Shown here: positions 29,377 through 59,822 of the stretch, piece by piece
Position numbering within the stretch: position 1 is the first letter of the stretch
Layout of the letters: every line of letters starts with the position of its first letter
Source: a virus
IMG/VR virus record: IMGVR_UViG_3300032893_000735
Coordinates: 1 to 64,000 of that record
Strand: one strand, 5' to 3'
DNA length: 64,000 nt
Notes under the pieces: generated by a model
What the model was told of the DNA's origin: nothing
The model's database searches: none
Seen by the model: the letters and a program-made list of their open reading frames with translations, nothing else
Program-made: the position numbers and the translations under genes

Positions 29377-32300
29377 CTAGCTGCTGGAAGTCTCTGATTG
29401 CAAACGTCTTAGCGTCATAGTGCTGCCAGGACGTAGCGTATTTGTGTACCTGCTCAGACTCCCTTCGGTCAGAGAGTCTTGTTTGTTACAGTCCATTTTC
29501 TGGACAGGGTAGATCATTTCTGTCTACCTCTCATGCTTCTTATTCGCATGAGGACGGACTATCGCATACTCTTTCGAGTCCCTCTCGCTTAGTCTCTCAC
29601 GGCGCCTTTCGGCTTCCGCCTTGTTCCCATTCACAGGATTCAAGTCGATCAGAGAAGGTTTAGACAACGCCATCAGGAACAACGTTGTAGCTGACCCCTG
29701 TTGCTACATAAGGTTAGACGGTGGACGGGTCATGCTGCTTTAAATCCACCGATTTGACGAGCCGGGTCTGATACTGAACCCTGCTCGGGTGCTGACTGGA
29801 TAAAGAGCTTCGACGTTTGTTACTGTCCATTTTCTGGACGGGCAGATCGTTTCTTGTTCCGTCTGCCTCTCTATGTCGCCATAGAGTTCGGACCATCTCA
29901 TCACCCTCAAAAGAGGGGCGCGGTATATGGCCTCTGCACGTTCCTGATTTCTCAGGCTTCGCTCAGGATTGTCTACGAGAGAGTTTCCCTGAATTAGCCG
30001 CGTGTTCGACAGCAGTTACCCGCTGAAGCTACAAGCAATATAGTTCTTTGATCCGTCATTGGGGTTCTTCCCGCGTATGTTACTCATTCTAAACAACTTA
30101 GAACGGGATGAATCATTTCTGTTCATCTCACTTGGTTACTATTCCCAAGTGTCCAGACTATTGCATCGCCCACAAAATGGACGCCACTTCGCTTAGTCGT
30201 TCACGGTGCTTTTCAGCTTCCGCCTCGTTGGCATTTCAGCGTTCGAGTCAATCAGAAGTGGTTTTCCAACGCAGATTACGCTGCGTGGTCCCCAGAGTTA
30301 AGGAAAACAGAGAAGATCGCGTCATCTCCAAAGATATACGTATTGTACAGTTATGTTACTCATTCTAAATGACTTAGAACGGGCTAGTGTATTTCTACCT
30401 AGCTCTGCATGTCGCCATGCAGCTCGGAGCACATCATCATCCTTTTCAGGAGCGCCGTCTATGCTCTCTACACACTTCCTGCTTCCAGGTTTGGCTCGGT
30501 ATTGTCTCAGAGAGATGTCCACCGAATTAGCGGCGTTATTCAAGAAGGATTACTCCTTCAGGCTACTAGACTTTCAGGTCCATAGGTATTTCCGGAGATC
30601 GTCACTGTAGGCGCAGTGCTGGTTTGTTTGAACGTAACACCCGCGAACGAAATGGTATCTTCGTTCCCAGGGAGGTCCATCAGCATACTGGCCTTGCTCG
30701 GGTCGCGCTTGAGGATATCCGTGAGGCCGTTGAACGAGGTATCGTTCAGGACATCGCGGACCACGTTCGGATGGATGACTCCGCCGAACTTGTTGTCCAC
30801 CAGCGGACGAGCGTTAACGCTAACCAGCGACTGAGCAGCCGACCGGATGTTATTCGCGGTCAGATACGAGCCGTTAGCAAGCTGAGAGTTGACCAAGCTG
30901 TCAACCGCAACTGCCGAGTCAGCGGTAATCTGGACAAGGCTGTTGAGGGTGAGGGCTAGGCGGTAGTTGAGTTCGTTTGCGAGGTTCTGCAAAAGACCCG
31001 GATCATCGATTGCGACATCGAGTGCCAGATCTGAACTGTTGATAAAATCGGCGTATTGGCCGCGTAGATGTTTTGGTTATCGATGTCACCATCGTAACTC
31101 TCTCATAGTCTCCTACGAGTTCGGGCTCTATCATCTTGTCCATTATTCAGACAAGTTCGGCATATTAGTCTCTATGGGTTCTGGTTTCCCAGTCTTCCCT
31201 CGGTATTGCCTCTTGGAGGTGTTCACCGATATAGCCGAATTTTACTACCACCGACGTTGCCGACATGGTAGCAACTATTTTGTTACTAGATTCAGAAATA
31301 GGAGAACCGCATTTGAGTTTAGGAGTCTAGCATCACTGCTAGATCGCGCCCGACATCACTGTCGGGATCGGACTCTATCATGCCCTCTTCTTCAAGAGGT
31401 CTCGGTGTATTAGCCTCTGAGGAGATTCCTCGAAAATTTAATTTCGCCATCTTCTCGAAGTAGTCAAGTTTCTGCTGCTTAGTCATGCTGTGGTTATTTC
31501 TAATCCACTCCAGCAGGAGAATAGCACGTTCTCTTTTAACTATAAGATACGGCAAGATCGCTAGGAGTTTGATTTCTCTCTGTTTTCGACCCGCTAATCC
31601 TCTAGCTTCAGACATCCTCCATGTCCCTTCGTCTCGGTTATCTTCCTTACGTTTTGACGTAGAGAAGGTTCCTCCGAAGCGGGACATTATCCAAGGAAAC
31701 ACAGTGTTGTCTGTGTTAGAGATACGAACATTTGAAGTATAAGCGCCGTTGCCCTTCTTCTTGCGCTTATCTATAGAGAAACTTCCTTCCGCGTCGATCA
31801 TACCGGCTAAATAAGCCCAATCTAATTTTGTAGGCTCAACCGGAATTATAGATTCTCTGACTACTTTTTTAGAAACAGGAACAAATGCGCCATTCGCTGT
31901 CTGCAAAGACCACATCAAATCATTTCGCCCTTCTGGATTCCTTTCGGAAAACATGGACAAGAATTGGTGCGATATATTTGCCTGCTTCTGTTTAAGAACG
32001 ATGTAAGGGAGTAGATTTCGAACAATGTCTCGACTGGACGTATACCAAGCATATTTTTGCTTTCGATTACCTTCTGTGGGTAATTTTCTCCACATGCCCC
32101 CAAACACCTGTACTAACCACTTCATAAGTGGCCTGTGGGAGTTGTAGACGTAAAGGGTGAATTGGTGCCCAGTTCCCTCTACTGATCGTATGCAAAAACT
32201 GCCGTCTCCGTCAATGAGACCCGCCAAATATGCCCATCTCTTTGGGCTGATTTTATCTTTATCCCTCAAGGAATTTTCCTCCGTCTTGTCTAGTCCTGCC

Positions 32301-33003
32301 GCCAGATATTAACGGATTTGACCGAGTTTAAGGACCGCAAGTGGTTTGTTTCCAATAACATGCGGCACGGTCCCTTCCGCGGCCTGATTCAAATTGGCCG
32401 CCAGAAGTGCGTAGGTATAGACAGTTTGTTTTTGGTTGACCGCATCTCTGCGGACTCGCTCTCATGGTTTCCCAAGAGTTCAGGCTGTGTCTTCAGTCCA
32501 TTCTGGACTGCCCGGCATGTCAGTCGTTCGGGAGCCTATTTCTAGGTTTCCTCGGCGTTGCCCTGTTCATTTATCATACTATCACGCCTGATAGTACGCG
32601 TCAACAGGGTTTTCGTCGATATAGTCGGGTTTGAATTCAGCGCTTTACCACTGAATCTGGTTGCCCTGCCGAAGCGGGAGCGGACGTTGCTTTGTCATGC
32701 TCAAGAACGGCGTCTGGGCTTTGAGGTTAGGGACTGCTTCGCGTTCATCAATGTGTTTTGGGTACTAGCATCTCTGCTAGTTCGCTCTGCATATTCCTAT
32801 GCAGTTCAGGCCGTGTCTTCAGTCCATTTTTCGGACTGTCTGGCGTCTCGGTCGTTACGGAGCCTATTTCTAGGTTTCCTCGAAGTTGCCCGGTCTGGGC
32901 CTCCTTCGATATAGCCAGATTTGAATTCACCAAGATTTTAGTGAATAGCTACCAAGTTCGGAAGCGCCCCGGATGTAACAATTGATGCAGGAGAGTAACT
33001 CAT
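29377..33003 (-). CDS. Major capsid protein (N4-gp56-like), 10 exons: 33003-32940, 32748-32650, 32421-32367, 31309-31265, 31062-30582, 30347-30301, 30073-30040, 29810-29744, 29697-29682, 29452-29377; 984 nt, 327 aa
   Basis: Joined exons give one stop-free frame: MSYSPASIVTSGALPNLVAIHYEREAVPNLKAQTPF...AAEGTVGSPISES...IGQYADFINSSDL...GVIHPNV...YIFGDDAIFSVFLGKNP...SDPARQIGGWVSYNVRYTNTLRP...SSS*. Follows portal and scaffold; every junction is U|intron...G|. Confidence 0.9.
29453..29681 (-). ncRNA. Group I intron 9 (229 nt)
   Basis: P1 ACAACGU/GCGUUGU; P10 CCUG/CAGG; canonical P7 GACUA/UAGUC. Confidence 0.88.
29698..29743 (-). ncRNA. Core-less 46-nt mini-intron (intron 8)
   Basis: P1 CGGUGGAU/GUCCACCG, P10 UGACCC/GGGUCA, terminal G; removal gives G-G-W-V-S-Y-N, retention gives an in-frame UGA. 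Confidence 0.75.
29811..30039 (-). ncRNA. Group I intron 7 (229 nt)
   Basis: P1 CUAU/GUAG; P7 GGCCA/UGGUC; ends GUAACAAACGUCG. Confidence 0.85.
30074..30300 (-). ncRNA. Group I intron 6 (227 nt)
   Basis: P1 UUCCU/GGGGA; canonical P7 GACUA/UAGUC; ends GUAACAUACG. Confidence 0.88.
30348..30581 (-). ncRNA. Group I intron 5 (234 nt)
   Basis: P1 CUAU/GUAG; P7 GAGCA/UGCUC; ends GUAACAUAACUG. Confidence 0.85.
31063..31264 (-). ncRNA. Group I intron 4 (202 nt)
   Basis: P1 CUACCAU/GUGGUAG; GAGACUA core; terminal G. Confidence 0.85.
31310..32366 (-). mobile_element. Group I intron 3 (1057 nt) carrying a LAGLIDADG endonuclease
   Basis: P1 GGACCGU/GCGGUCC; P7-like GAGGCUA...GAGUCCG; terminal G restores the V-G-S frame. 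Confidence 0.88.
31319..32269 (-). CDS. Double-motif LAGLIDADG homing endonuclease (intron-encoded)
   Basis: YLAGLIDGDGSF and YLAGMIDAEGSF; GGAGG RBS; C-terminus overlaps the intron core. Confidence 0.92.
   Translation of the reverse strand: MRDKDKISPKRWAYLAGLIDGDGSFCIRSVEGTGHQFTLYVYNSHRPLMKWLVQVFGGMWRKLPTEGNRKQKYAWYTSSRDIVRNLLPYIVLKQKQANISHQFLSMFSERNPEGRNDLMWSLQTANGAFVPVSKKVVRESIIPVEPTKLDWAYLAGMIDAEGSFSIDKRKKKGNGAYTSNVRISNTDNTVFPWIMSRFGGTFSTSKRKEDNRDEGTWRMSEARGLAGRKQREIKLLAILPYLIVKRERAILLLEWIRNNHSMTKQQKLDYFEKMAKLNFRGISSEANTPRPLEEEGMIESDPDSDVGRDLAVMLDS
32422..32649 (-). ncRNA. Group I intron 2 (228 nt)
   Basis: P1 AUUCAGU/GCUGAAU; core very similar to intron 1; terminal G. Confidence 0.85.
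32749..32939 (-). ncRNA. Group I intron 1 of the capsid gene (191 nt)
   Basis: P1 AUUCACU/GGUGAAU with U.G at the splice site; core-like CUAUAUCG...GAGGAAAC...GACCG...CGGCCUG; terminal G. Confidence 0.85.
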
Positions 33004-35550: not shown

Positions 35551-38500
35551 TTACAGAAGACTACCAAAACCTACTCCGCTAGTGTTCGGTGATCCAGTTA
35601 GTTCTTCTGGTTCGACTGCTCTCTTAAAGGATTCTCTCAACACGTCACGACTCGCACGGGCTATGTTCTCCTGGTCAGCCAACTCCTGCGCTTGCTGGAA
35701 CTTCTGTTGTTGCAACTGTGCTTGAGCTTGTGCCTGCGCTTGTATCTTCTGGTTCATCTGACCACCCTGCGACTGGGCCTGCTGACGGGCCAAATCTTGC
35801 GGGGTCATGTCAGTAATTATGTCGGACATACTCTTGCATTCCGCTGCTTCGAACCAGAGATGGAGAAGTTCAGTAACATCTATTTTCTTACCTTCAAGAG
35901 CCAGAGAGGATATGATTTCCGGATTGGCCAGCGTTTGCGAGAGCATCGGAAGGGCCTGATTCAGGTTTCTCCGAGTTTGCATTTTCGACCCAGCTAGGAT
36001 GTCAAACTTAACTTTCGCGTTCAGAATATCAACAAGATCCCCGCCGTTCTCAACATACTCATGTTTCAGTTCCTCGCTCATGATGAACTGGAGTTGAGAA
36101 AGTGGGAGCATCATTCGGTTCATTTCAGCCATATCATAAAGAAACGGCACAATAATCTGATTCGCCAGCTTGTCCACGCATTCGGAAATCACGTTGGACG
36201 CGCCCTGAGTCAGCGCCTGCGCCCCAGCGGAACTACGGGCCATATTGGAATGTCCGCTGGCCCCCGCGATACCCTGGGAGGTAATCGAGTTGTTCCCCGA
36301 CACTTCGCCCACCCTAGCTTGCGACTGAGTGAACAAATAACTGGCTTCTTGGACAGGCTCCCCGAACTTGAGCGGTTCCAGATCGCCCTTAGCGTCTACT
36401 TCAATAATCCGATTCGGACCAATTCGGATACTCTGCGTCGGTACCGACTTACCGCGAACCCGAAGCATCGGAGCGTTCAGCTTCAGGTTTGCGATGTTCA
36501 TAACCAGATTCGTGATGCCAGTTTGGACACGCTGTTCGGTTCCGATCGTGTTATGGGTGAGAATGCAGTCGTCAGTTACATACAGATGGTCAGGAGAATC
36601 GACCATGATGCACTGACACTGTTTCTGAGATACTAACTCTACTGACTTGATGAAGCGGGCCGGAAGATACTTTGTTCTAGGTACGTGCTTCTCCACTTTC
36701 CTAGTCAATCGGAAAGGATTAAAGGTAACACCTATAGTCAGAATAAACTGTCTGTCAGCAGGTTTTGCGAGACCTGTGTAATTCTTTTCCCAACCTTCTT
36801 TCCATCTCTTGGTGACGACAGTTACAGAACCTCCCAAAGACTGAACCAGAAATTTCACGTCATCCCGAAGTCTTTCTGAAGTTGTATAGAACTGACAGGC
36901 ACCGTTGCTCAGCGCAGAACCGTCTGTATCCATCAGACCAGCAAGAATTGCTTTTCTTTGAGCGACAGATCCGAACTTGTAGACATCGGGAATAAACTTG
37001 TAACGTGATGTGCAATTTACTCCGAGGTCACGAGTAACCCTACGGATTACATTACACTTTCCATCAAGAGAAGTAAACTTATAGTCATATTGACTTTGCG
37101 GAATTTTAGTGATCTTGGTATTTTCGGGCAGGACTTCGTTAATCCGATCTATGAGTTCTGGATCGGCAGTAGTAAATTTGGGAGTTTCGGTAGTCATACC
37201 CCCGTCGCCAAGAAGGAGCCCCATCAGGTACGGATCAAGAGGCTGTACCTTCTCTTCAAATTCTACTGGAGAAACTATAGGTATCCTGTACCGGCATTGG
37301 TGGTGGCCAGATTTTGCTTTTAAATCTCCCCAAATCTCCTGAAGTTCCAGAGTTCTAGTTTTCCACCCACGCTTCTGTTTGATTTTTGTCTTGGTTTGTA
37401 CTGTCCACAAATGTTCTTTGCAGCACTCAGTAGAAGAGCCGTCCGAAAAATGGACACGATAAACATCTTTCTCGCCTTGCGGATATATCCCAGTAACACA
37501 GTATGGCTTTCCATCAGAACCGATAACCTTGGTTCCAACTTCAACTTCTCCCATTGTAGTCCAACCATCTGGGGTCAAAATCTTAGCGTCAAGAGGCTGG
37601 GAGCGACCGAGCCCCAAACTCCAAAAACTTTGCGGAGAATCCCACCACCCAATCGAGTAAAACGGGATCTTGCCGTAGATATTCTTGTCGTTGTAAATTA
37701 CAAGTTTCTTCTGGAGGACTACGATGTACGTGTTGTTATCCCACCGTTCGAGGACTTCAAGCGGCTGCTGGAAAGGATCGATGGTCGTCTTTTCCCACGG
37801 AGAATCTGCCCGAGCGTCCCAAAGAGGATTACGCCCGCCTTCTTGCTGAGGGTTTGATTCGACAGGTTCTACAGGGGGGAGGAACAATTCAAGGAGTTTT
37901 TCACGTGACGGGATGTTGTAGCCTTCCCGTTCGCGGAGTCTGTCCAGGTCTTCCCAAGTCATGTACCGGCGGCGGATAACATACTTCGCTTTTCGAATAT
38001 CAGGAACGTCCAGACCGGGATCGACCAAGATTTCTCGCAGATTGACGATATGCTCGAATGTGGGCCTGTCTACGACCTCTTCTATTTCTTCGACTTCTAA
38101 TTCGTCATCCGTGATACTTGTAGCAGGCGCTCCGGGGATTGAACTGGGGATTACGATAGGAGGATTCTTGCGCTTGATGATTTTACGGGTACGAGTAAAT
38201 TTTTCCCATCCGGCTTGGAAGATGGCCGTGCCGAACAGCAGCATGTTCATGGTTCCCAGACGGATCTCTTCGCGGAAATTTATATCTTCTAATTGGTATC
38301 CGAGAAGTGCGGAAACGGCTCGGGCAGCTTGCGCCGAAGTTCCGCTTCGTTCTTGCGTCATAAAAGGAGGGTTCTCATAAAACAAACCGGCAAGAACTTG
38401 AGGGGTAAGACCGTTTACCGCAGTTGCAACCGTGTAGAAGTTTACAGAGGCCGCTTCCATCTGGGTTCCGGGCCAAAAATTCGGAGTCATGACCGCGTTG

Positions 38501-38697
38501 TAGAGGTCGCGGGCATTGTTCCAACCCATTAAATACTCGCGACGACGTTCTCCGCTGTCGGCCTTTTCCGCGTCCTGTAGTACAAGTTTTAGCGGAGCTG
38601 AATCAGACGAAGCCCAGGATTGATCGTTAAGAAACGAGAGCGCCTCTTCTTTTGTGAGGTCTTGGTAAGCGTTAACCTCTGGCTGATTTAGTATCAT
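35551..38697 (-). CDS. Portal protein containing an intein
   Basis: Podovirus-type portal features (LFGTAIFQAGW, ILVDP, IPFY, Gln-rich tail); lies downstream of terminase. Confidence 0.85.
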   Translation of the reverse strand: MILNQPEVNAYQDLTKEEALSFLNDQSWASSDSAPLKLVLQDAEKADSGERRREYLMGWNNARDLYNAVMTPNFWPGTQMEAASVNFYTVATAVNGLTPQVLAGLFYENPPFMTQERSGTSAQAARAVSALLGYQLEDINFREEIRLGTMNMLLFGTAIFQAGWEKFTRTRKIIKRKNPPIVIPSSIPGAPATSITDDELEVEEIEEVVDRPTFEHIVNLREILVDPGLDVPDIRKAKYVIRRRYMTWEDLDRLREREGYNIPSREKLLELFLPPVEPVESNPQQEGGRNPLWDARADSPWEKTTIDPFQQPLEVLERWDNNTYIVVLQKKLVIYNDKNIYGKIPFYSIGWWDSPQSFWSLGLGRSQPLDAKILTPDGWTTMGEVEVGTKVIGSDGKPYCVTGIYPQGEKDVYRVHFSDGSSTECCKEHLWTVQTKTKIKQKRGWKTRTLELQEIWGDLKAKSGHHQCRYRIPIVSPVEFEEKVQPLDPYLMGLLLGDGGMTTETPKFTTADPELIDRINEVLPENTKITKIPQSQYDYKFTSLDGKCNVIRRVTRDLGVNCTSRYKFIPDVYKFGSVAQRKAILAGLMDTDGSALSNGACQFYTTSERLRDDVKFLVQSLGGSVTVVTKRWKEGWEKNYTGLAKPADRQFILTIGVTFNPFRLTRKVEKHVPRTKYLPARFIKSVELVSQKQCQCIMVDSPDHLYVTDDCILTHNTIGTEQRVQTGITNLVMNIANLKLNAPMLRVRGKSVPTQSIRIGPNRIIEVDAKGDLEPLKFGEPVQEASYLFTQSQARVGEVSGNNSITSQGIAGASGHSNMARSSAGAQALTQGASNVISECVDKLANQIIVPFLYDMAEMNRMMLPLSQLQFIMSEELKHEYVENGGDLVDILNAKVKFDILAGSKMQTRRNLNQALPMLSQTLANPEIISSLALEGKKIDVTELLHLWFEAAECKSMSDIITDMTPQDLARQQAQSQGGQMNQKIQAQAQAQAQLQQQKFQQAQELADQENIARASRDVLRESFKRAVEPEELTGSPNTSGVGFGSLL
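36550..37602 (-). mobile_element. 351-aa intein with a LAGLIDADG domain (Ser1, WCT signature of class 3)
   Basis: GR|SQPLDAKILTPDGW...CCKEHLW...LLGDG...LAGLMDTDG...CQCIMVD...ILTHN|T. Confidence 0.92.
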
Positions 38698-51467: not shown

Positions 51468-51549
51468 TGGAGCGGAAGACGAGATTCGAACTCGCATGTC
51501 TAAGACGGTTGCTTGGAAGGCAACGGCTCTACCACTGAGCGACTTCCGC
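51468..51549 (-). tRNA. tRNA-Gly(TCC) with an extended variable arm
   Basis: Cloverleaf, loop CTTCCAA, TTCGAAT, CCA. Confidence 0.85.
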
Positions 51550-51554
51550 GAACT

Positions 51555-51632
51555 TGGTCCCCGAAGACGGACTTGAACCGCCCACCTAGCGGTTATCGAC
51601 CGCTTGCTCTTGTCAAGATGAGCTATTCGGGG
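51555..51632 (-). tRNA. tRNA-Ile(GAT), C33
   Basis: AGCGG-TCGATAA-CCGCT; CCA. Confidence 0.8.
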
Positions 51633-51633
51633 A

Positions 51634-51707
51634 TGGTGCCGAATAAGAGATTCGAACTCCTGTCTTCTGGGTGTAGACCAGAGGCCCTGCCTTTAGGCGA
51701 ACTCGGC
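51634..51707 (-). tRNA. tRNA-Val(TAC), C33
   Basis: TCTGG-TCTACAC-CCAGA; CCA. Confidence 0.8.
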
Positions 51708-51712
51708 AAAAC

Positions 51713-51787
51713 TGGTGATCGCAGACAGAATCAAACTGTCATATCAGGCTTCGGAGACCTGCGCTCTGTTCTTTGAGCTATGCGACC
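51713..51787 (-). tRNA. tRNA-Arg(CCG)
   Basis: Loop CTCCGAA; CCA. Confidence 0.8.
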
Positions 51788-51791
51788 AAAC

Positions 51792-51867
51792 TGGAGATCC
51801 CGCCGAGACTCAAACTCGGGTCTGAAGTTTAGGAAACTACTGCTCTATTCTCCTGAGCTACGGGACC
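51792..51867 (-). tRNA. tRNA-Arg(CCT)
   Basis: Loop TTCCTAA; CCA. Confidence 0.8.
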
Positions 51868-51873
51868 GAAACT

Positions 51874-51949
51874 TGGAACTCCTGGAGGGAGTCGAACCCC
51901 CGACCTAGACTTTAGAAAAATCCCGCTCTTCCGTCTGAGCTACAGGAGC
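51874..51949 (-). tRNA. tRNA-Arg(TCT)
   Basis: Loop TTTCTAA; CCA. Confidence 0.85.
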
Positions 51950-51953
51950 AAAC

Positions 51954-52028
51954 TGGTAGACCGCCAGAGACTCGAACTCTGTCCAAGACGCGGTAAAAGC
52001 ACGTTATGCACCCTCACACTCACGGTCC
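51954..52028 (-). tRNA. tRNA-Lys(TTT)
   Basis: Loop CTTTTAC; CCA. Confidence 0.75.
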
Positions 52029-52034
52029 AAAACT

Positions 52035-52110
52035 TGGTGCGTCCAGAGGGAAACGATCCCCCGACCTTCTCATTAAGAGTGAGTTGCTCTACCAACTGAG
52101 CTATGGACGC
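52035..52110 (-). tRNA. tRNA-Lys(CTT)
   Basis: Loop CTCTTAA; CCA. Confidence 0.85.
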
Positions 52111-52111
52111 A

Positions 52112-52204
52112 TGGTAGGCGATGAGTGAGTTGAACACTCCCGTTGCGCTAATCTGGCGCTTTCCCGAGTCTATAAGTCTCAGCCGCACACCGATGCTATC
52201 GCCC
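52112..52204 (-). tRNA. Atypical tRNA, anticodon TAT (Ile), with a long variable arm
   Basis: Loop CTTATAG; V-arm GCGC-CAGATTA-GCGC; CCA. Confidence 0.7.
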
Positions 52205-52211
52205 GTAAACT

Positions 52212-52282
52212 TGGTGCCAAAGCGGGGAATCAAACCCCTCATTCCGCTTTATGAGGGCAGATGCCGAATCATCGGCCTTGGC
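52212..52282 (-). tRNA. tRNA with CAT anticodon (Met/Ile2), degenerate
   Basis: Loop CTCATAA; short D region; CCA. Confidence 0.6.
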
Positions 52283-52287
52283 AAAAC

Positions 52288-52362
52288 TGGCGGGAGATGT
52301 AGGATTTTAACCCACAAGTTCCGGGTTGGAGCCGGACAGTTTGACATTGAGCTTAATCTCCC
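52288..52362 (-). tRNA. tRNA-Trp(CCA)
   Basis: TCCGG-CTCCAAC-CCGGA; CCA. Confidence 0.75.
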
Positions 52363-52363
52363 G

Positions 52364-52438
52364 TGGAACCCGGTAGCGGAGTTCAACCGCTGTTTCGAAG
52401 TTCGTAGCTTCGCGCCTTATGCGTTAGACGAACCGGGC
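52364..52438 (-). tRNA. tRNA-Arg(ACG)
   Basis: CGAAG-CTACGAA-CTTCG; CCA. Confidence 0.8.
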
Positions 52439-52447
52439 ATTTTAAAA

Positions 52448-52521
52448 TGGTCGGGGTAGAGGTAATCGAAACCTCGTCTTATGATCCCAAATCATAGGCT
52501 TGACCTTCCAGCTATACCCCG
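52448..52521 (-). tRNA. tRNA-Pro(TGG)
   Basis: TATGA-TTTGGGA-TCATA; CCA. Confidence 0.85.
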
Positions 52522-52522
52522 A

Positions 52523-52598
52523 TGGTGGGCAGTCGCAGAATCGAACTGCGCCGTGAGGCTTTTCAGACCTCCGTTCCAACCATGCAAACTCACTACCC
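52523..52598 (-). tRNA. tRNA-Phe(GAA)
   Basis: Loop CTGAAAA; CCA. Confidence 0.8.
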
Positions 52599-52710
52599 AA
52601 AACTTATTCGGTTTTATCTGCATCATCATTCTCGGGCATATAAGAGGTTAGTCAAGCTAACGTAGGATGCTTGCAATGGCAGAGCGGGAAACCGAAAAAC
52701 ACCTTTGTAT

Positions 52711-52786
52711 TGGTGGAGCATGTCGGATCTGCCCCGACTGCCTCCGCGTTGCAGGCGCGGCGCTCTCCTAATTGAGCTAATGCCCC
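52711..52786 (-). tRNA. tRNA-Ala(TGC), C33
   Basis: G3.U70 pair; loop CCTGCAA; CCA. Confidence 0.85.
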
Positions 52787-53367
52787 TACTCGGGGTGCCT
52801 CCATTTGTAAGGCCCGTCCCGATTATTATAGTGGTCCAAATCATGACAATTAGGGCATAAGAGTTCCAAATTGTCTATCGTATTATTTGTTCGATCTCTA
52901 TCCTTATGGTGAACTTGCAAAATTTCCGGATGAAGATCATACCCACATCTGTTACAAATCTTATCGTAAGTTCGAAGTGCTATCGCTCTGTAGCTGTATC
53001 TTCCATCGCCATAATGACTTGGTCTGAGAATTTCATTATGCTTTCCCATTCTTTGGGCGTCATCTTTGCAGATTCTAGAACAAAATCGGAGTCCGCTCTT
53101 CGATTTCTTGAGATTAGATTGACTTCTGTAAAAGATCAACCCACAGTTGTCACACTTTAGTTCATGTATTTTAGACGGATTGGATGCTCGGAAACATTCA
53201 GGGCTACAGTATCTCCTACCTGCATGTTTTGGGGCATAGAAACTTTTTCCGCAAAAAGTACAGAACTGCAAAAACAACTTACGCTGCTTTCCATCATAGA
53301 TAGTTGAAACAATTACCTCTTCCACGTTTAGTCCTCTTCTGGGGGCGGGACCTACGCGAATCATCAA
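52786..53367 (-). CDS. HNH endonuclease with Zn fingers, inserted in the tRNA array
   Basis: Multiple CxxC; QVHHKDRDRTNNTIDNLELLCPNCH. Confidence 0.85.
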   Translation of the reverse strand: MMIRVGPAPRRGLNVEEVIVSTIYDGKQRKLFLQFCTFCGKSFYAPKHAGRRYCSPECFRASNPSKIHELKCDNCGLIFYRSQSNLKKSKSGLRFCSRICKDDAQRMGKHNEILRPSHYGDGRYSYRAIALRTYDKICNRCGYDLHPEILQVHHKDRDRTNNTIDNLELLCPNCHDLDHYNNRDGPYKWRHPE

Positions 53368-53440
53368 TCCACCACCTGTAGAATTTCTATGCTACAGGAC
53401 ATTTACCACGCTTGAGTTTAGCATCCTCAAACACTTATTT

Positions 53441-53520
53441 TGGGGTGGCCGGAGGAAGTTGAATCCTCAAGAAGCAAATTCCACAGACTTGTCCGACATA
53501 CCCGTAGTCGGCACGGCCAC
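53441..53520 (-). tRNA. tRNA-His(GTG), no encoded G-1
   Basis: Loop CTGTGGA; C73; CCA. Confidence 0.75.
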
Positions 53521-53547
53521 ACTTGTTGTCCATTATCTGGACGAAAC

Positions 53548-53629
53548 TGGAGCCTAGTGAGGGACTCGAACCCTCGCGTTGGAATGGCAGTTTACAAAAC
53601 TGCTGCTGTCGCCGCTGAGCCAACTAGGC
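53548..53629 (-). tRNA. tRNA-Thr(TGT), enlarged variable loop
   Basis: GCAGT-TTTGTAA-ACTGC; CCA. Confidence 0.85.
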
Positions 53630-53675
53630 ATTTCACGTCCGCACTTAGGGAGGCGGAACTCCAACTTACAAAGAA

Positions 53676-53704
53676 ATACTACCACAACATTTCTTAATTG
53701 TCAA
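53676..53704 (-). promoter_or_regulatory. Internal sigma70 promoter of the tRNA array
   Basis: TTGACA-N17-TAGTAT with extended TG. Confidence 0.7.
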
Positions 53705-53712
53705 GCGAAATC

Positions 53713-53787
53713 TGGAGCCGAATAGCGGCCTCAAACCGCTGTCTCATGCGTACCAAGCATGTGCTCTTTCTGTTGAGCTAATTCGGC
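53713..53787 (-). tRNA. tRNA-Thr(GGT)
   Basis: Loop TTGGTAC; CCA. Confidence 0.8.
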
Positions 53788-53788
53788 T

Positions 53789-53862
53789 TGGAGCCCAATT
53801 GGGGAATTCAACCCCAGTCTTCTCTGTACGAAGGAGATGTACTGGCACTGTACTAATCGGGC
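53789..53862 (-). tRNA. tRNA-Thr(CGT)
   Basis: Loop TTCGTAC; CCA. Confidence 0.75.
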
Positions 53863-53868
53863 ATTAGT

Positions 53869-53943
53869 TGGCTCCGCCGCGAGGTTACGATCCCCGTTTC
53901 CCGAGTTCAAAGCCCGGTGCCTTACCGATTAGACGACGGCGGA
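53869..53943 (-). tRNA. tRNA-Gln(TTG)
   Basis: Loop CTTTGAA; U1-A72; CCA. Confidence 0.8.
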
Positions 53944-53949
53944 ATAACT

Positions 53950-54028
53950 TGGGGAGGTAGACGGGAATTGAACCCGCGTAACACGGTGTGAAAGACCGTG
54001 GACAAAAACCAGCGTTGTCGGCTACCTC
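53950..54028 (-). tRNA. tRNA-Glu(TTC)
   Basis: ACGGT-CTTTCAC-ACCGT; CCA. Confidence 0.75.
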
Positions 54029-54045
54029 AAACTTTTTATCTAAAA

Positions 54046-54132
54046 TGGCGGAAGTCGGAGGTAACGATCCCCCATCCCTTTCGGGAGCCACGGTTTTCAA
54101 AACCGTTTGTCTCACCATCGACGGCGACTTCC
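54046..54132 (-). tRNA. tRNA-Ser(TGA)
   Basis: Loop TTTGAAA; long V-arm; G73. Confidence 0.85.
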
Positions 54133-54136
54133 AAAC

Positions 54137-54224
54137 TGGCGGTTGGTTGAGAAATCGAATCCCCGTGCCTTACGACACTCCGACTGCTTTCGAAACAGTT
54201 TGCGAACCTTTCGCGGAACCAACC
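54137..54224 (-). tRNA. tRNA-Ser(CGA)
   Basis: Loop TTCGAAA; long V-arm; G73. Confidence 0.75.
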
Positions 54225-54374
54225 TTAAACTAATTCGCGGAGAGAATTTCGGCGTCAGTACAATGTTTCTTTCGCTGGGCAGTTTCTCTCTGCCTCGGAT
54301 CGGGTTCTAGACCCCGTTAGCTAGTACCTGAAAAGCATCCCTCGTCTGCACACGACCTATTTCTAGCGCGAAAC

Positions 54375-54460
54375 TGGCGGAAAGCACAGGAGTTTAACCT
54401 GATACCTTTCAGTACGCATCCGCTTCCAACGGAGCCTCGGAACGTCCGAGTTTACTTTCC
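54375..54460 (-). tRNA. tRNA-Ser(GGA)
   Basis: Loop TTGGAAG; long V-arm; G73. Confidence 0.75.
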
Positions 54461-54461
54461 A

Positions 54462-54550
54462 TGGCGGAGAAGGTGGGTGCTGACCCCACGCGGCTCTTTC
54501 AAGTCCACTGGTTTAGCAAACCAGCCCGTTTACCGTTCCGGCACTTCTCC
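54462..54550 (-). tRNA. tRNA-Ser(GCT)
   Basis: Loop TTGCTAA; long V-arm; G73. Confidence 0.85.
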
Positions 54551-54628
54551 GTAAAACTTGGTTGAGAACGTGTGCTCTGGTCGGGTTGATTAAGCACGTT
54601 TACCGCAGCCGACCAGCGTTCTCAAACT

Positions 54629-54706
54629 TGGTGCGGATGGTCGGATTTGAGCCGACAGACCGAAAGGTTTGAGCTTTCGAGGTATTCCAATTCCCATCAC
54701 ATCCGC
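54629..54706 (-). tRNA. tRNA-Leu(CAA) with a short variable loop
   Basis: GAAAG-CTCAAAC-CTTTC; CCA. Confidence 0.75.
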
Positions 54707-54711
54707 AAACT

Positions 54712-54793
54712 TGGTACCCGCAGAGGGACTTGAACCCCCACCCCTAGAGAATGCATCCTAAGTGCATCGTGTCTGCCATTCCACCATGCGGGC
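54712..54793 (-). tRNA. tRNA-Leu(TAG)
   Basis: Loop CTTAGGA; CCA. Confidence 0.85.
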
Positions 54794-54803
54794 AAAATTA
54801 AAC

Positions 54804-54890
54804 TGGTACTCGGGAAGGGACTCGAACCCTCATCCCCTTTCGAGGATTAGCACCTCAAGCTAACGCGGCTTCCAATTTCGCCACCCGAGT
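54804..54890 (-). tRNA. tRNA-Leu(GAG)
   Basis: Loop TTGAGGT; long V-arm; CCA. Confidence 0.85.
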
Positions 54891-54965
54891 AAAACTTTGT
54901 CGGATTTGTCCAGGCGGGGTCCGACTGGCCTCGATACGTTTAAAGTGGTGTTTGTCATCCACTAA

Positions 54966-55040
54966 TGGAGTACCGTGCTGGACTTCAACCAGCTAAAGAG
55001 GTTTTGCAGACCTCTGATTCGAGCCTTTATCTTACGGTAC
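54966..55040 (-). tRNA. tRNA-Cys(GCA)
   Basis: Loop CTGCAAA; U73; CCA. Confidence 0.75.
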
Positions 55041-55041
55041 A

Positions 55042-55117
55042 TGGTAGGCGGCCCGAGATTCGAACTCGGATATCAACGATCTTAAATCGTTTGCCTTTGC
55101 CGTTAGGCTAGCCGCCC
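55042..55117 (-). tRNA. tRNA-Leu(TAA) with a short variable loop
   Basis: AACGA-TTTAAGA-TCGTT; CCA. Confidence 0.8.
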
Positions 55118-59719: not shown

Positions 59720-59822
59720 TCGCAGAGTGGCCGTCCGGAAAATGGACGGTTAATGCGGCGGTCCCGTCACAAGCCGGGACAATCCAAACCGTATTCCGTG
59801 AAACTCACGGCGAAAGGGAAAC

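Follow-up and report, generated by a model that had tools for sequence, protein, structure and literature searches.

The stretch of DNA analyzed here (the window) comprises the first 64 kilobases (kb) of the 105.8-kb IMG/VR virus record IMGVR_UViG_3300032893_000735, which derives from a wetland metagenome and is estimated to be 98% complete. It contains the gene coding for a major capsid protein of the N4-gp56 family (33003..29377, minus strand), with 10 exons and nine introns, the latter accounting for about 73% of the capsid locus. The subject of this work is intron 8, an insert of 46 nucleotides (nt) at 29743-29698 (minus strand) that is followed by a very short exon 9 and by the full-length intron 9. 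The structure of the gene was agreed by three routes: tblastn with the intron-less homologue P0001, enumeration of exon-intron boundaries, and a custom spliced protein-to-DNA aligner. At all nine junctions (9/9), the best boundary had a U as the last exon base and a G as the last intron base. The joined coding sequence of 984 nt codes for a protein of 327 amino acids (aa) with 96% identity to the homologues P0123/P0127. More than 100 intron-less capsid homologues of 326-330 aa were found, and the sole capsid match among isolated phages was that of Tunturiibacter phage Tunturi_3 (44% identity). No second capsid gene was found in the genome at the estimated completeness given above. In this phage group, group I introns occupy more than 30 codon positions of the capsid gene, with up to nine in one gene, and they belong to at least three sequence families (X, Y, and Z).

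Intron 8 lies between exon 8 (29744..29810, minus strand; 67 nt, comprising KLFIQSAPEQGSVSDPARQIGG and the first base of a Trp codon) and exon 9 (29682..29697, minus strand; 16 nt). Only one boundary, with 29744 as the end of exon 8 and 29697 as the start of exon 9, yields the protein segment IGGWVSYNV; this boundary is fixed because the exon ends in U and the intron in G, while the intron begins with U and exon 9 with G. If the insert were kept in, the frame would read GGA UUU AAA GCA GCA UGA, with a stop five codons into the insert in addition to a frameshift. Its exact removal, which the gene requires, rebuilds a Trp residue that is invariant in the 102 homologues covering this motif (102/102). 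The preliminary description, made from the letters of the window alone, had read the insert in this same way, as an in-frame UGA and a frameshift when retained and a complete 327-aa capsid protein when removed, and the unique boundary bears this out.

The insert contains segments that pair with its two exons (all on the minus strand). The last 8 nt of exon 8 (CGGUGGAU, 29751-29744) pair with the internal guide GUCCACCG (29719..29726) in an 8-base-pair (bp) P1 helix, CGGUGGAU/GUCCACCG, with a U.G pair at the cut, where the first G of the guide lies opposite the exon U. The adjoining UGACCC (29727..29732) pairs with GGGUCA at the start of exon 9 (29697-29692) to give a 6-bp P10 contiguous with P1. 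This contiguous guide, UGACCC-GUCCACCG, was found exactly as previously claimed, and P1 plus P10 of this length occurred in just 0.05% of 2000 shuffles of the insert. The guide is preceded by a leader or P1 loop (UUAAAGCAGCA, 29733..29743) and followed by a joiner (UCUAACCUUA, 29709..29718), which resembles J1/3 of intron 9 together with the four nucleotides that open its P3; within this region, UCUAACCUU of the insert matches UCUAAACCUU of intron 9. Next comes UGUAGC (29703..29708), the 5' strand of a further helix, named H3, that pairs with GCUACA of exon 9 (29691-29686), and the insert ends with a linker AACA and a terminal G (omega-G, 29698; the whole segment at 29698..29702). A search of the insert against Rfam gave no match to a group I core even at E values up to 1, whereas neighboring introns did match. 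Only 21 nt remain 3' of the guide, six of which are paired with the exon, and they contain neither an internal hairpin nor a P7-like element. As to group I membership, the insert has a P1 with U.G, an omega-G, and a P10, and it lacks a P3-P8 core with a guanosine site in P7. It resembles the substrate half of a group I intron and is not a group I ribozyme. RNAfold predicted P1 in this region, with a stability no better than that of shuffled sequences (z +0.4); the P1, P10, and H3 helices form a pseudoknot, which lies outside RNAfold scoring.

Related capsid genes were collected by a search of IMG/VR with P0001, which gave 80 loci, and by a degenerate DNA pattern on metagenome contigs, which gave 11 more capsid contigs; the spliced alignment was run on all of them. 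An exact search of viral contigs with a 21-mer of the insert gave no match, and the relatives differ from it in sequence. In total, 22 distinct mini-introns of 38-59 nt were present in related contigs from many samples. Twelve of them occupy site 297.1 (window, L008, L041, L054, L081, L097, L098, L099, L100, L101, and L111), four site 297.0 (L043-48, L059-62, L065/71, and L095), three site 185.0 (L063, L070, and L101), two site 29.2 (L074 and L098), and one site 310.0 (L098). Three further candidates (L051 308.2:38, L077 187.1:96, and L078 280.0:78) were unconfirmed and were left out of the count. A single gene, that of L098 (Ga0172380_10004182), carries three mini-introns, each with a full-length intron 16-31 nt downstream. 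Among the intron-less contigs, none matched the joined exons of any split gene at more than 85%, and none of the listed members of the P0001 cluster was equal to the product of the window gene.

The U at the end of the exon, the G at the end of the intron, and a G opposite that U were found in all 22 mini-introns (22/22). Over the 12 sequences of site 297.1, position -2 of P1 is A-U, G-C, C-G, or U.G, position -5 of P1 is U-A, A-U, or C-G, and position +5 of P10 is C-G, U-A, or A-U, plus one U.U. These pairs were counted with a script anchored at the exon ends, since a MAFFT alignment of the mini-introns places the exon ends wrongly. The compensatory changes in P1 and P10 establish that the guide is selected as RNA helices. 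The insert had been described beforehand as group I-type with no room for P3-P9, and this assignment stands, as its features recur in the 22 distinct relatives with compensatory changes.

Every mini-intron for which the downstream sequence could be read is followed, at 16-52 nt, by a full-length intron. The contig of L081 ends before the partner position, and its relative L097 has the partner. By comparison, another intron was found at 40 nt or less downstream in 13 of 119 full-length introns. An upstream intron is absent in L008 and, at site 185, in L063, L070, and L101, and the whole capsid gene of L008 contains only the mini-intron and its downstream partner. Full-length introns at site 302.2 without a mini-intron occur in L034, L058, L063, and L069; the converse was never seen. 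The association of the mini-introns with a downstream full-length intron is a strict one. The partners belong mostly to the Z family, which includes intron 9, and sometimes to the X family. The predicted Z core (P3-P9.1) shows compensatory changes in 31 of its 38 pairs. In an observation of its own, one of the contigs L063, L070, and L101 has a Z-type intron of 204 nt at site 191.0, and the others have an X-type intron of 635-642 nt there, the same 185.0 mini-intron lying upstream of either type.

In the window, the partner is intron 9 (29681-29453, minus strand; 229 nt), the presumed helper, which is a full-length group I intron of the Z family. Its guide GCGUUGU (29670-29664) faces the exon 9 segment ACAACGU (29688-29682) in its own P1, and it further contains a P10 guide CCUG (29677-29674) and the P3 5' strand CCUUCUC (29658-29652), all on the minus strand. 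The upstream full-length neighbor, intron 7 (30039-29811, minus strand; 229 nt), matches the Rfam group I model RF00028 with 61 bits and is a possible but unnecessary helper. Searches of the genome with profiles of the X, Y, and Z families gave matches confined to the capsid gene; therefore, any phage-encoded helper core would sit on the same pre-mRNA. The preliminary description had proposed that the insert depends on the core of a neighboring intron, 7 or 9. The dependence is supported by association, through the constant presence of a downstream full-length intron 16-52 nt away and the pairing of the mini-intron tail up to the P1 of that intron (see below). Between the two candidates, intron 9 rather than intron 7 is the likely one, given that L008, L063, L070, and L101 have no upstream intron.

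The tail of the mini-introns pairs with the 3' exon directly after P10, forming helix H3 (UGUAGC/GCUACA in the window). Its two strands covary: the pair is UGUAAC/GUUACA in L054, GUUAUAG/CUAUAAC in L081, and GUAAG/CUUAC in L065, and at site 185 ACAACGA/UCGUUGU in one case is replaced by AACGACG/CGUCGUU in another. The helix between tail and exon has a mean length of 7.1 bp in mini-introns versus 5.0 bp in 130 full-length introns (Mann-Whitney p = 8e-9), and the tail-exon duplex is more stable than that of shuffled tails (mean z -2.1), the 5% level being reached by 12 of 18. The support for H3 lies in covariation and in these family-level tests, the shuffling of single sequences being non-significant. 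According to RNAduplex, the tail pairs along nearly the whole downstream mini-exon, as far as the P1 5' strand of the following intron. Thus, the tail pairing spans +2..+24 in L098-310 with the partner P1 at +23..+29, +10..+32 in L041 with the partner P1 at +32..+38, and +2..+48 in L097 with the partner P1 at +46..+52. In L044, the tail matches the exon just 5' of the 310.0 intron, past a seemingly later-inserted 302.2 intron. Selection acts on all three helices, P1, P10, and H3. The GUAGCA near the end of the insert had originally been likened to the GUAACA near the 3' ends of introns 5, 6, 7, and 9; the likeness is there, but GUAGCA is above all part of the 5' strand of this helix that covaries with the 3' exon.

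Concerning their origin, the mini-introns appear to be internal-deletion derivatives of complete introns. At site 185.0, full-length introns are present in L072, L077, and L100, and mini-introns with the same guide, UUAGGG-GUGGAUG, are present elsewhere; likewise, site 310.0 has full-length introns in L041, L044, L059, and L065 and, elsewhere, a mini-intron with the same guide, GCGCAG. The core deletion that had been put forward for the window insert thus finds its counterpart in the aligned related capsid genes, where full-length and mini forms share a guide at these two sites. The insert itself retains an intron 9-like J1/3 and four P3 bases (UCUAA-CCUU), and its 3' end resembles the GUAACA..G end of the Y and Z families. 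The match to intron 9 after the guide, already pointed out in the preliminary description, is therefore present, but its reading as a P3 remnant is not general. The idea that CCUU of a mini-intron stands in for the P3 5' strand of intron 9 was tested and rejected as a general rule: P3 is different in the partner in L098, and a segment of this kind is missing from the mini-introns at site 185.

The leader motif AGCAGCA is common to the window insert, to the mini-introns of L008, L100, and L111, and to that of L070 at site 185. In its wider form, A(A/U)AGCAGCAU(AAUUA), the motif lies at 29733-29743 (minus strand) in the window, at 3681-3700 in L008, and at 4559-4577 in L070, that is, at sites 297 and 185. 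Its presence at both sites hints at recombination or retargeting between mini-introns. A partner for the leader AGCAGC was sought, and the only match was a wobble-rich one at the border of exon 9 and intron 9, in one lineage.

Based on these features, we propose that intron 8 is a core-deleted group I intron that the ribozyme of intron 9, just downstream, would excise; base pairing would tether the two introns, and we put the probability of this reading at about 0.6. The 16 nt of exon 9 are wholly covered by three consecutive helices, so that in the pre-mRNA this exon would be held by the guide of the mini-intron (P10), by the tail of the mini-intron (H3), and by the guide of intron 9 (P1), and the mini-intron would therefore be tethered to the 5' end of intron 9. 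The core of intron 9 (P3-P9, with the guanosine site in P7) would then dock the P1 of the mini-intron, guanosine would cut after U29744, G29698 would enter the guanosine site of the partner, and exon 8 would be ligated to exon 9; intron 9 would self-splice afterward. From the sequences, we infer excision at the RNA level by group I chemistry, with intron 9 as the catalyst and the events in this order.

Several points weigh against this proposal. The partners come from two families (X and Z), so that no specific tertiary match to one core can be claimed, and the exon that separates mini-intron from partner measures 38-52 nt in some relatives. The mini-introns share ancestry, and the association statistics overstate their independence. 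The H3 of the window is weak when taken alone (6 bp, z -1.5, equaled by 7.7% of shuffles), and it overlaps the P1 of intron 9 by 2-3 nt, which makes full co-formation of both helices impossible. In addition, the docking of a P1 whose guide lies outside the ribozyme is, to our knowledge, a matter of in vitro work alone.

Some of these points would be accommodated if the same core-less substrate were excised in trans by whichever group I intron RNA from this gene happens to be free, such as intron 7 or introns already excised, the neighbor having no special role and H3 merely shaping the 3' splice site. Eight full-length introns arise from the same pre-mRNA, and both the two families of partners and the gap of 38-52 nt in some relatives would fit such an arrangement. 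It leaves aside, however, that the downstream intron is always there while the upstream one is missing in L008, L063, L070, and L101, that the tail-exon pairing reaches right to the P1 of the partner, and that the single possible helper in L008 is the downstream intron; we consider trans cleavage unlikely. More doubtful is that the insert is an autonomous minimal ribozyme aided by exon structure, like the 67-nt PaSSU intron of Phialophora ribosomal DNA (rDNA), which has the same layout as P1, P10, and H3 and is reported to splice in vitro with long exon flanks (PMC3160393). The fungal introns have a P7 hairpin with a guanosine-binding site, whereas the phage mini-introns (38-59 nt) have neither a hairpin nor a P7-like element, and autonomy would leave their strict co-occurrence with a full-length intron unexplained. 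Removal by proteins, in which the exons, splinted by the guide of the insert, would be sealed by a nick-sealing RNA ligase once an endonuclease had cut at either end, appears marginally less probable again. Together, the guide and H3 are indeed complementary, in permuted order, to about 20 nt of the joined exons, and the phage genome codes, outside the window, for an RNA ligase of the Rnl2 family (PF09414, 48 bits). Nevertheless, a splint would have no need for the U.G at the cut and the terminal G, hallmarks of group I chemistry that are found in 22/22; RtcB was not found in the phage and no candidate endonuclease is known, and the mini-introns descend from group I introns at the same sites. 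The ligase gene itself (genome G000:C1, about 89555-90622; L083, 1309-2376) adjoins a deoxycytidine monophosphate (dCMP) deaminase and a C5 DNA methylase open reading frame (ORF), the latter also matching a LAGLIDADG domain.

The remaining explanations leave the insert in the RNA or deny its existence. Translational bypassing, as known from gene 60 of T4 and from the byps of Magnusiomyces mitochondria, needs matched take-off and landing codons, and the insert resembles such elements in that it interrupts an essential coding sequence beside a Gly codon, contains a stop, and is about 50 nt long. Here, the ribosome would hop from the GGA before the insert to the GGG after it; otherwise, with a stop five codons in, the gene would be dead. 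Bypassing is practically excluded because the hop would drop the Trp that is invariant in 102/102 homologues, and because mini-introns of the 297.0 type, in which the exon ends in GGU and the next one starts with UGG, have no matching landing codon. In contrast to bypass elements, which show matched codons and a product without the residues of the gap, the window insert splits a Trp codon that is rebuilt on removal, and what covaries with both exon ends is pairing in RNA helices, not codons. A dead gene, in turn, would be at odds with this being the only capsid gene and with the other eight junctions being perfectly kept, and retention of the insert in either form seems very improbable. There is hardly any chance that an assembly artifact collapsed a full-length intron to 46 nt, even if the introns of the gene share repeats and no contig of the probable source run X1 covers the insert. 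Mini-introns of 38-59 nt were found at the same site in dozens of contigs that were assembled independently and represent many samples, no long repeat is common to the insert and other introns, and a soil-metagenome contig of a separate study (run X6) spans 29639-29768 gap-free, which settles the concern about misassembly raised at the outset. An artifact, a dead gene, and chance are all practically excluded because of this many-sample family, the compensatory changes in the helices, and the X6 contig.

Self-splicing group I introns are well known in phages, among them those of td, nrdB, and sunY of T4 and the three introns of orf142 of Staphylococcus phage Twort. Like these (RF00028), the insert has a P1 with U.G, a guide that also forms P10, and a terminal G, it resides in an essential gene, and it clusters with others in one gene. 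It differs from them in having no P3-P9 core or P7 guanosine site, in its length of 46 nt versus at least about 190 nt for complete introns here, and in the extra helix between tail and 3' exon. Stripped elements relying on full-size relatives are represented by the group III introns of Euglena plastids, which are degenerate group II introns, and by miniature inverted-repeat transposable elements (MITEs). With these, the mini-introns share the retention of the ends recognized by the machinery and the need for a full-size relative; the chemistry and machinery are others, with no group I ribozyme and no base-paired tether to a helper.

The closest natural analogues would be the degenerate rDNA introns of Phialophora, Arthonia, and Porpidia. 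These small group I introns of fungal nuclear small-subunit rDNA measure about 56-81 nt (63-75 for Phialophora PaSSU, 63 for Arthonia lapidicola, and 78 for Porpidia; PMC3160393). They have in common with the phage mini-introns a P1, a P10, and a pairing between intron and 3' exon, and an origin by internal deletion is proposed for both. The fungal introns have a P7 hairpin with a guanosine site, end in U, lie in rRNA, stand alone, and are reported to self-splice in vitro (PMC3160393), whereas the phage mini-introns are 38-59 nt long, have no P7, end in G, lie in mRNA, and always have a complete intron downstream. Measured against PaSSU, the window insert shows the P1, P10, and tail-exon pairing and lacks both the P7 hairpin (with its bulge beside a G-C pair) and the omega-U. 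In function, the closest analogues would be engineered trans-excision-splicing ribozymes and spliceozymes, in which a group I core removes an internal segment and joins its flanks (PMC2532722, PMC4094466). As in trans-excision splicing, the segment excised here follows a U and ends in G. Those systems are man-made and carry the guides in the ribozyme, whereas here the guide is inside the excised segment, in a natural RNA and in cis on one transcript. Dense introns in capsid genes of crAss-like phages have been published, without mention of mini-introns (PMC7886860), and our literature search turned up no account of phage group I introns that lack a core.

The other introns of the window gene, all on the minus strand, are intron 1 (32939-32749, 191 nt), intron 2 (32649-32422, 228 nt), intron 3 (32366-31310, 1057 nt), intron 4 (31264-31063, 202 nt), intron 5 (30581-30348, 234 nt), and intron 6 (30300-30074, 227 nt). 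Rfam core matches were obtained in introns 7, 1, 4, 2, and 3. Intron 3 houses an ORF for a LAGLIDADG homing endonuclease (31319-32308, minus strand; PF00961, E 2e-11). For intron 7, contigs of the soil metagenome (run X6) fuse 29810 to 30041, which points to related phages with an intron-less allele at this site. Elsewhere in the window, a type-P5 twister ribozyme lies at 59721-59778 (plus strand; RF02684, 57 bits versus a gathering score of 37.6), and 18 tRNA genes are clustered at 51471-55117 (minus strand). A 1048-aa portal-like ORF (35551-38697, minus strand) has an apparent intein/LAGLIDADG block (LGLLLGDGG ... THN-T), as judged by eye from the translation.

More broadly, the mini-introns could form a natural class of non-autonomous group I introns in phage capsid genes ("one ribozyme, two introns"), a generalization to which we give even odds: an intron of 38-59 nt, consisting solely of guide, antisense tail, and terminal G, would dock on the 5' exon of a complete intron, use its ribozyme, and arise repeatedly by core deletion. 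In keeping with a helper-dependent class, the mini-introns with readable downstream sequence were never found without a nearby complete group I intron on the same transcript. That sites 297 and 185 have a leader motif in common suggests that mini-introns might also move, or be retargeted, from one site to another. Inserts of this kind break phage gene calls, so that capsid proteins appear truncated in databases, and such an insert can be taken for a frameshift, a pseudogene, or a site of ribosome hopping. For RNA engineering, the docking of so small an element (guide, antisense tail, terminal G) beside a ribozyme suggests a compact layout for RNA segments that are to be removed. If the proposal is true, a natural group I ribozyme would act on a P1 and P10 that are not its own, which has so far been shown only with engineered RNAs, and the mini-introns would be the first non-autonomous group I introns, comparable to MITEs or to the group III introns of Euglena. 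It would also show how introns can be reduced to no more than a few dozen bases and yet leave the transcript precisely.

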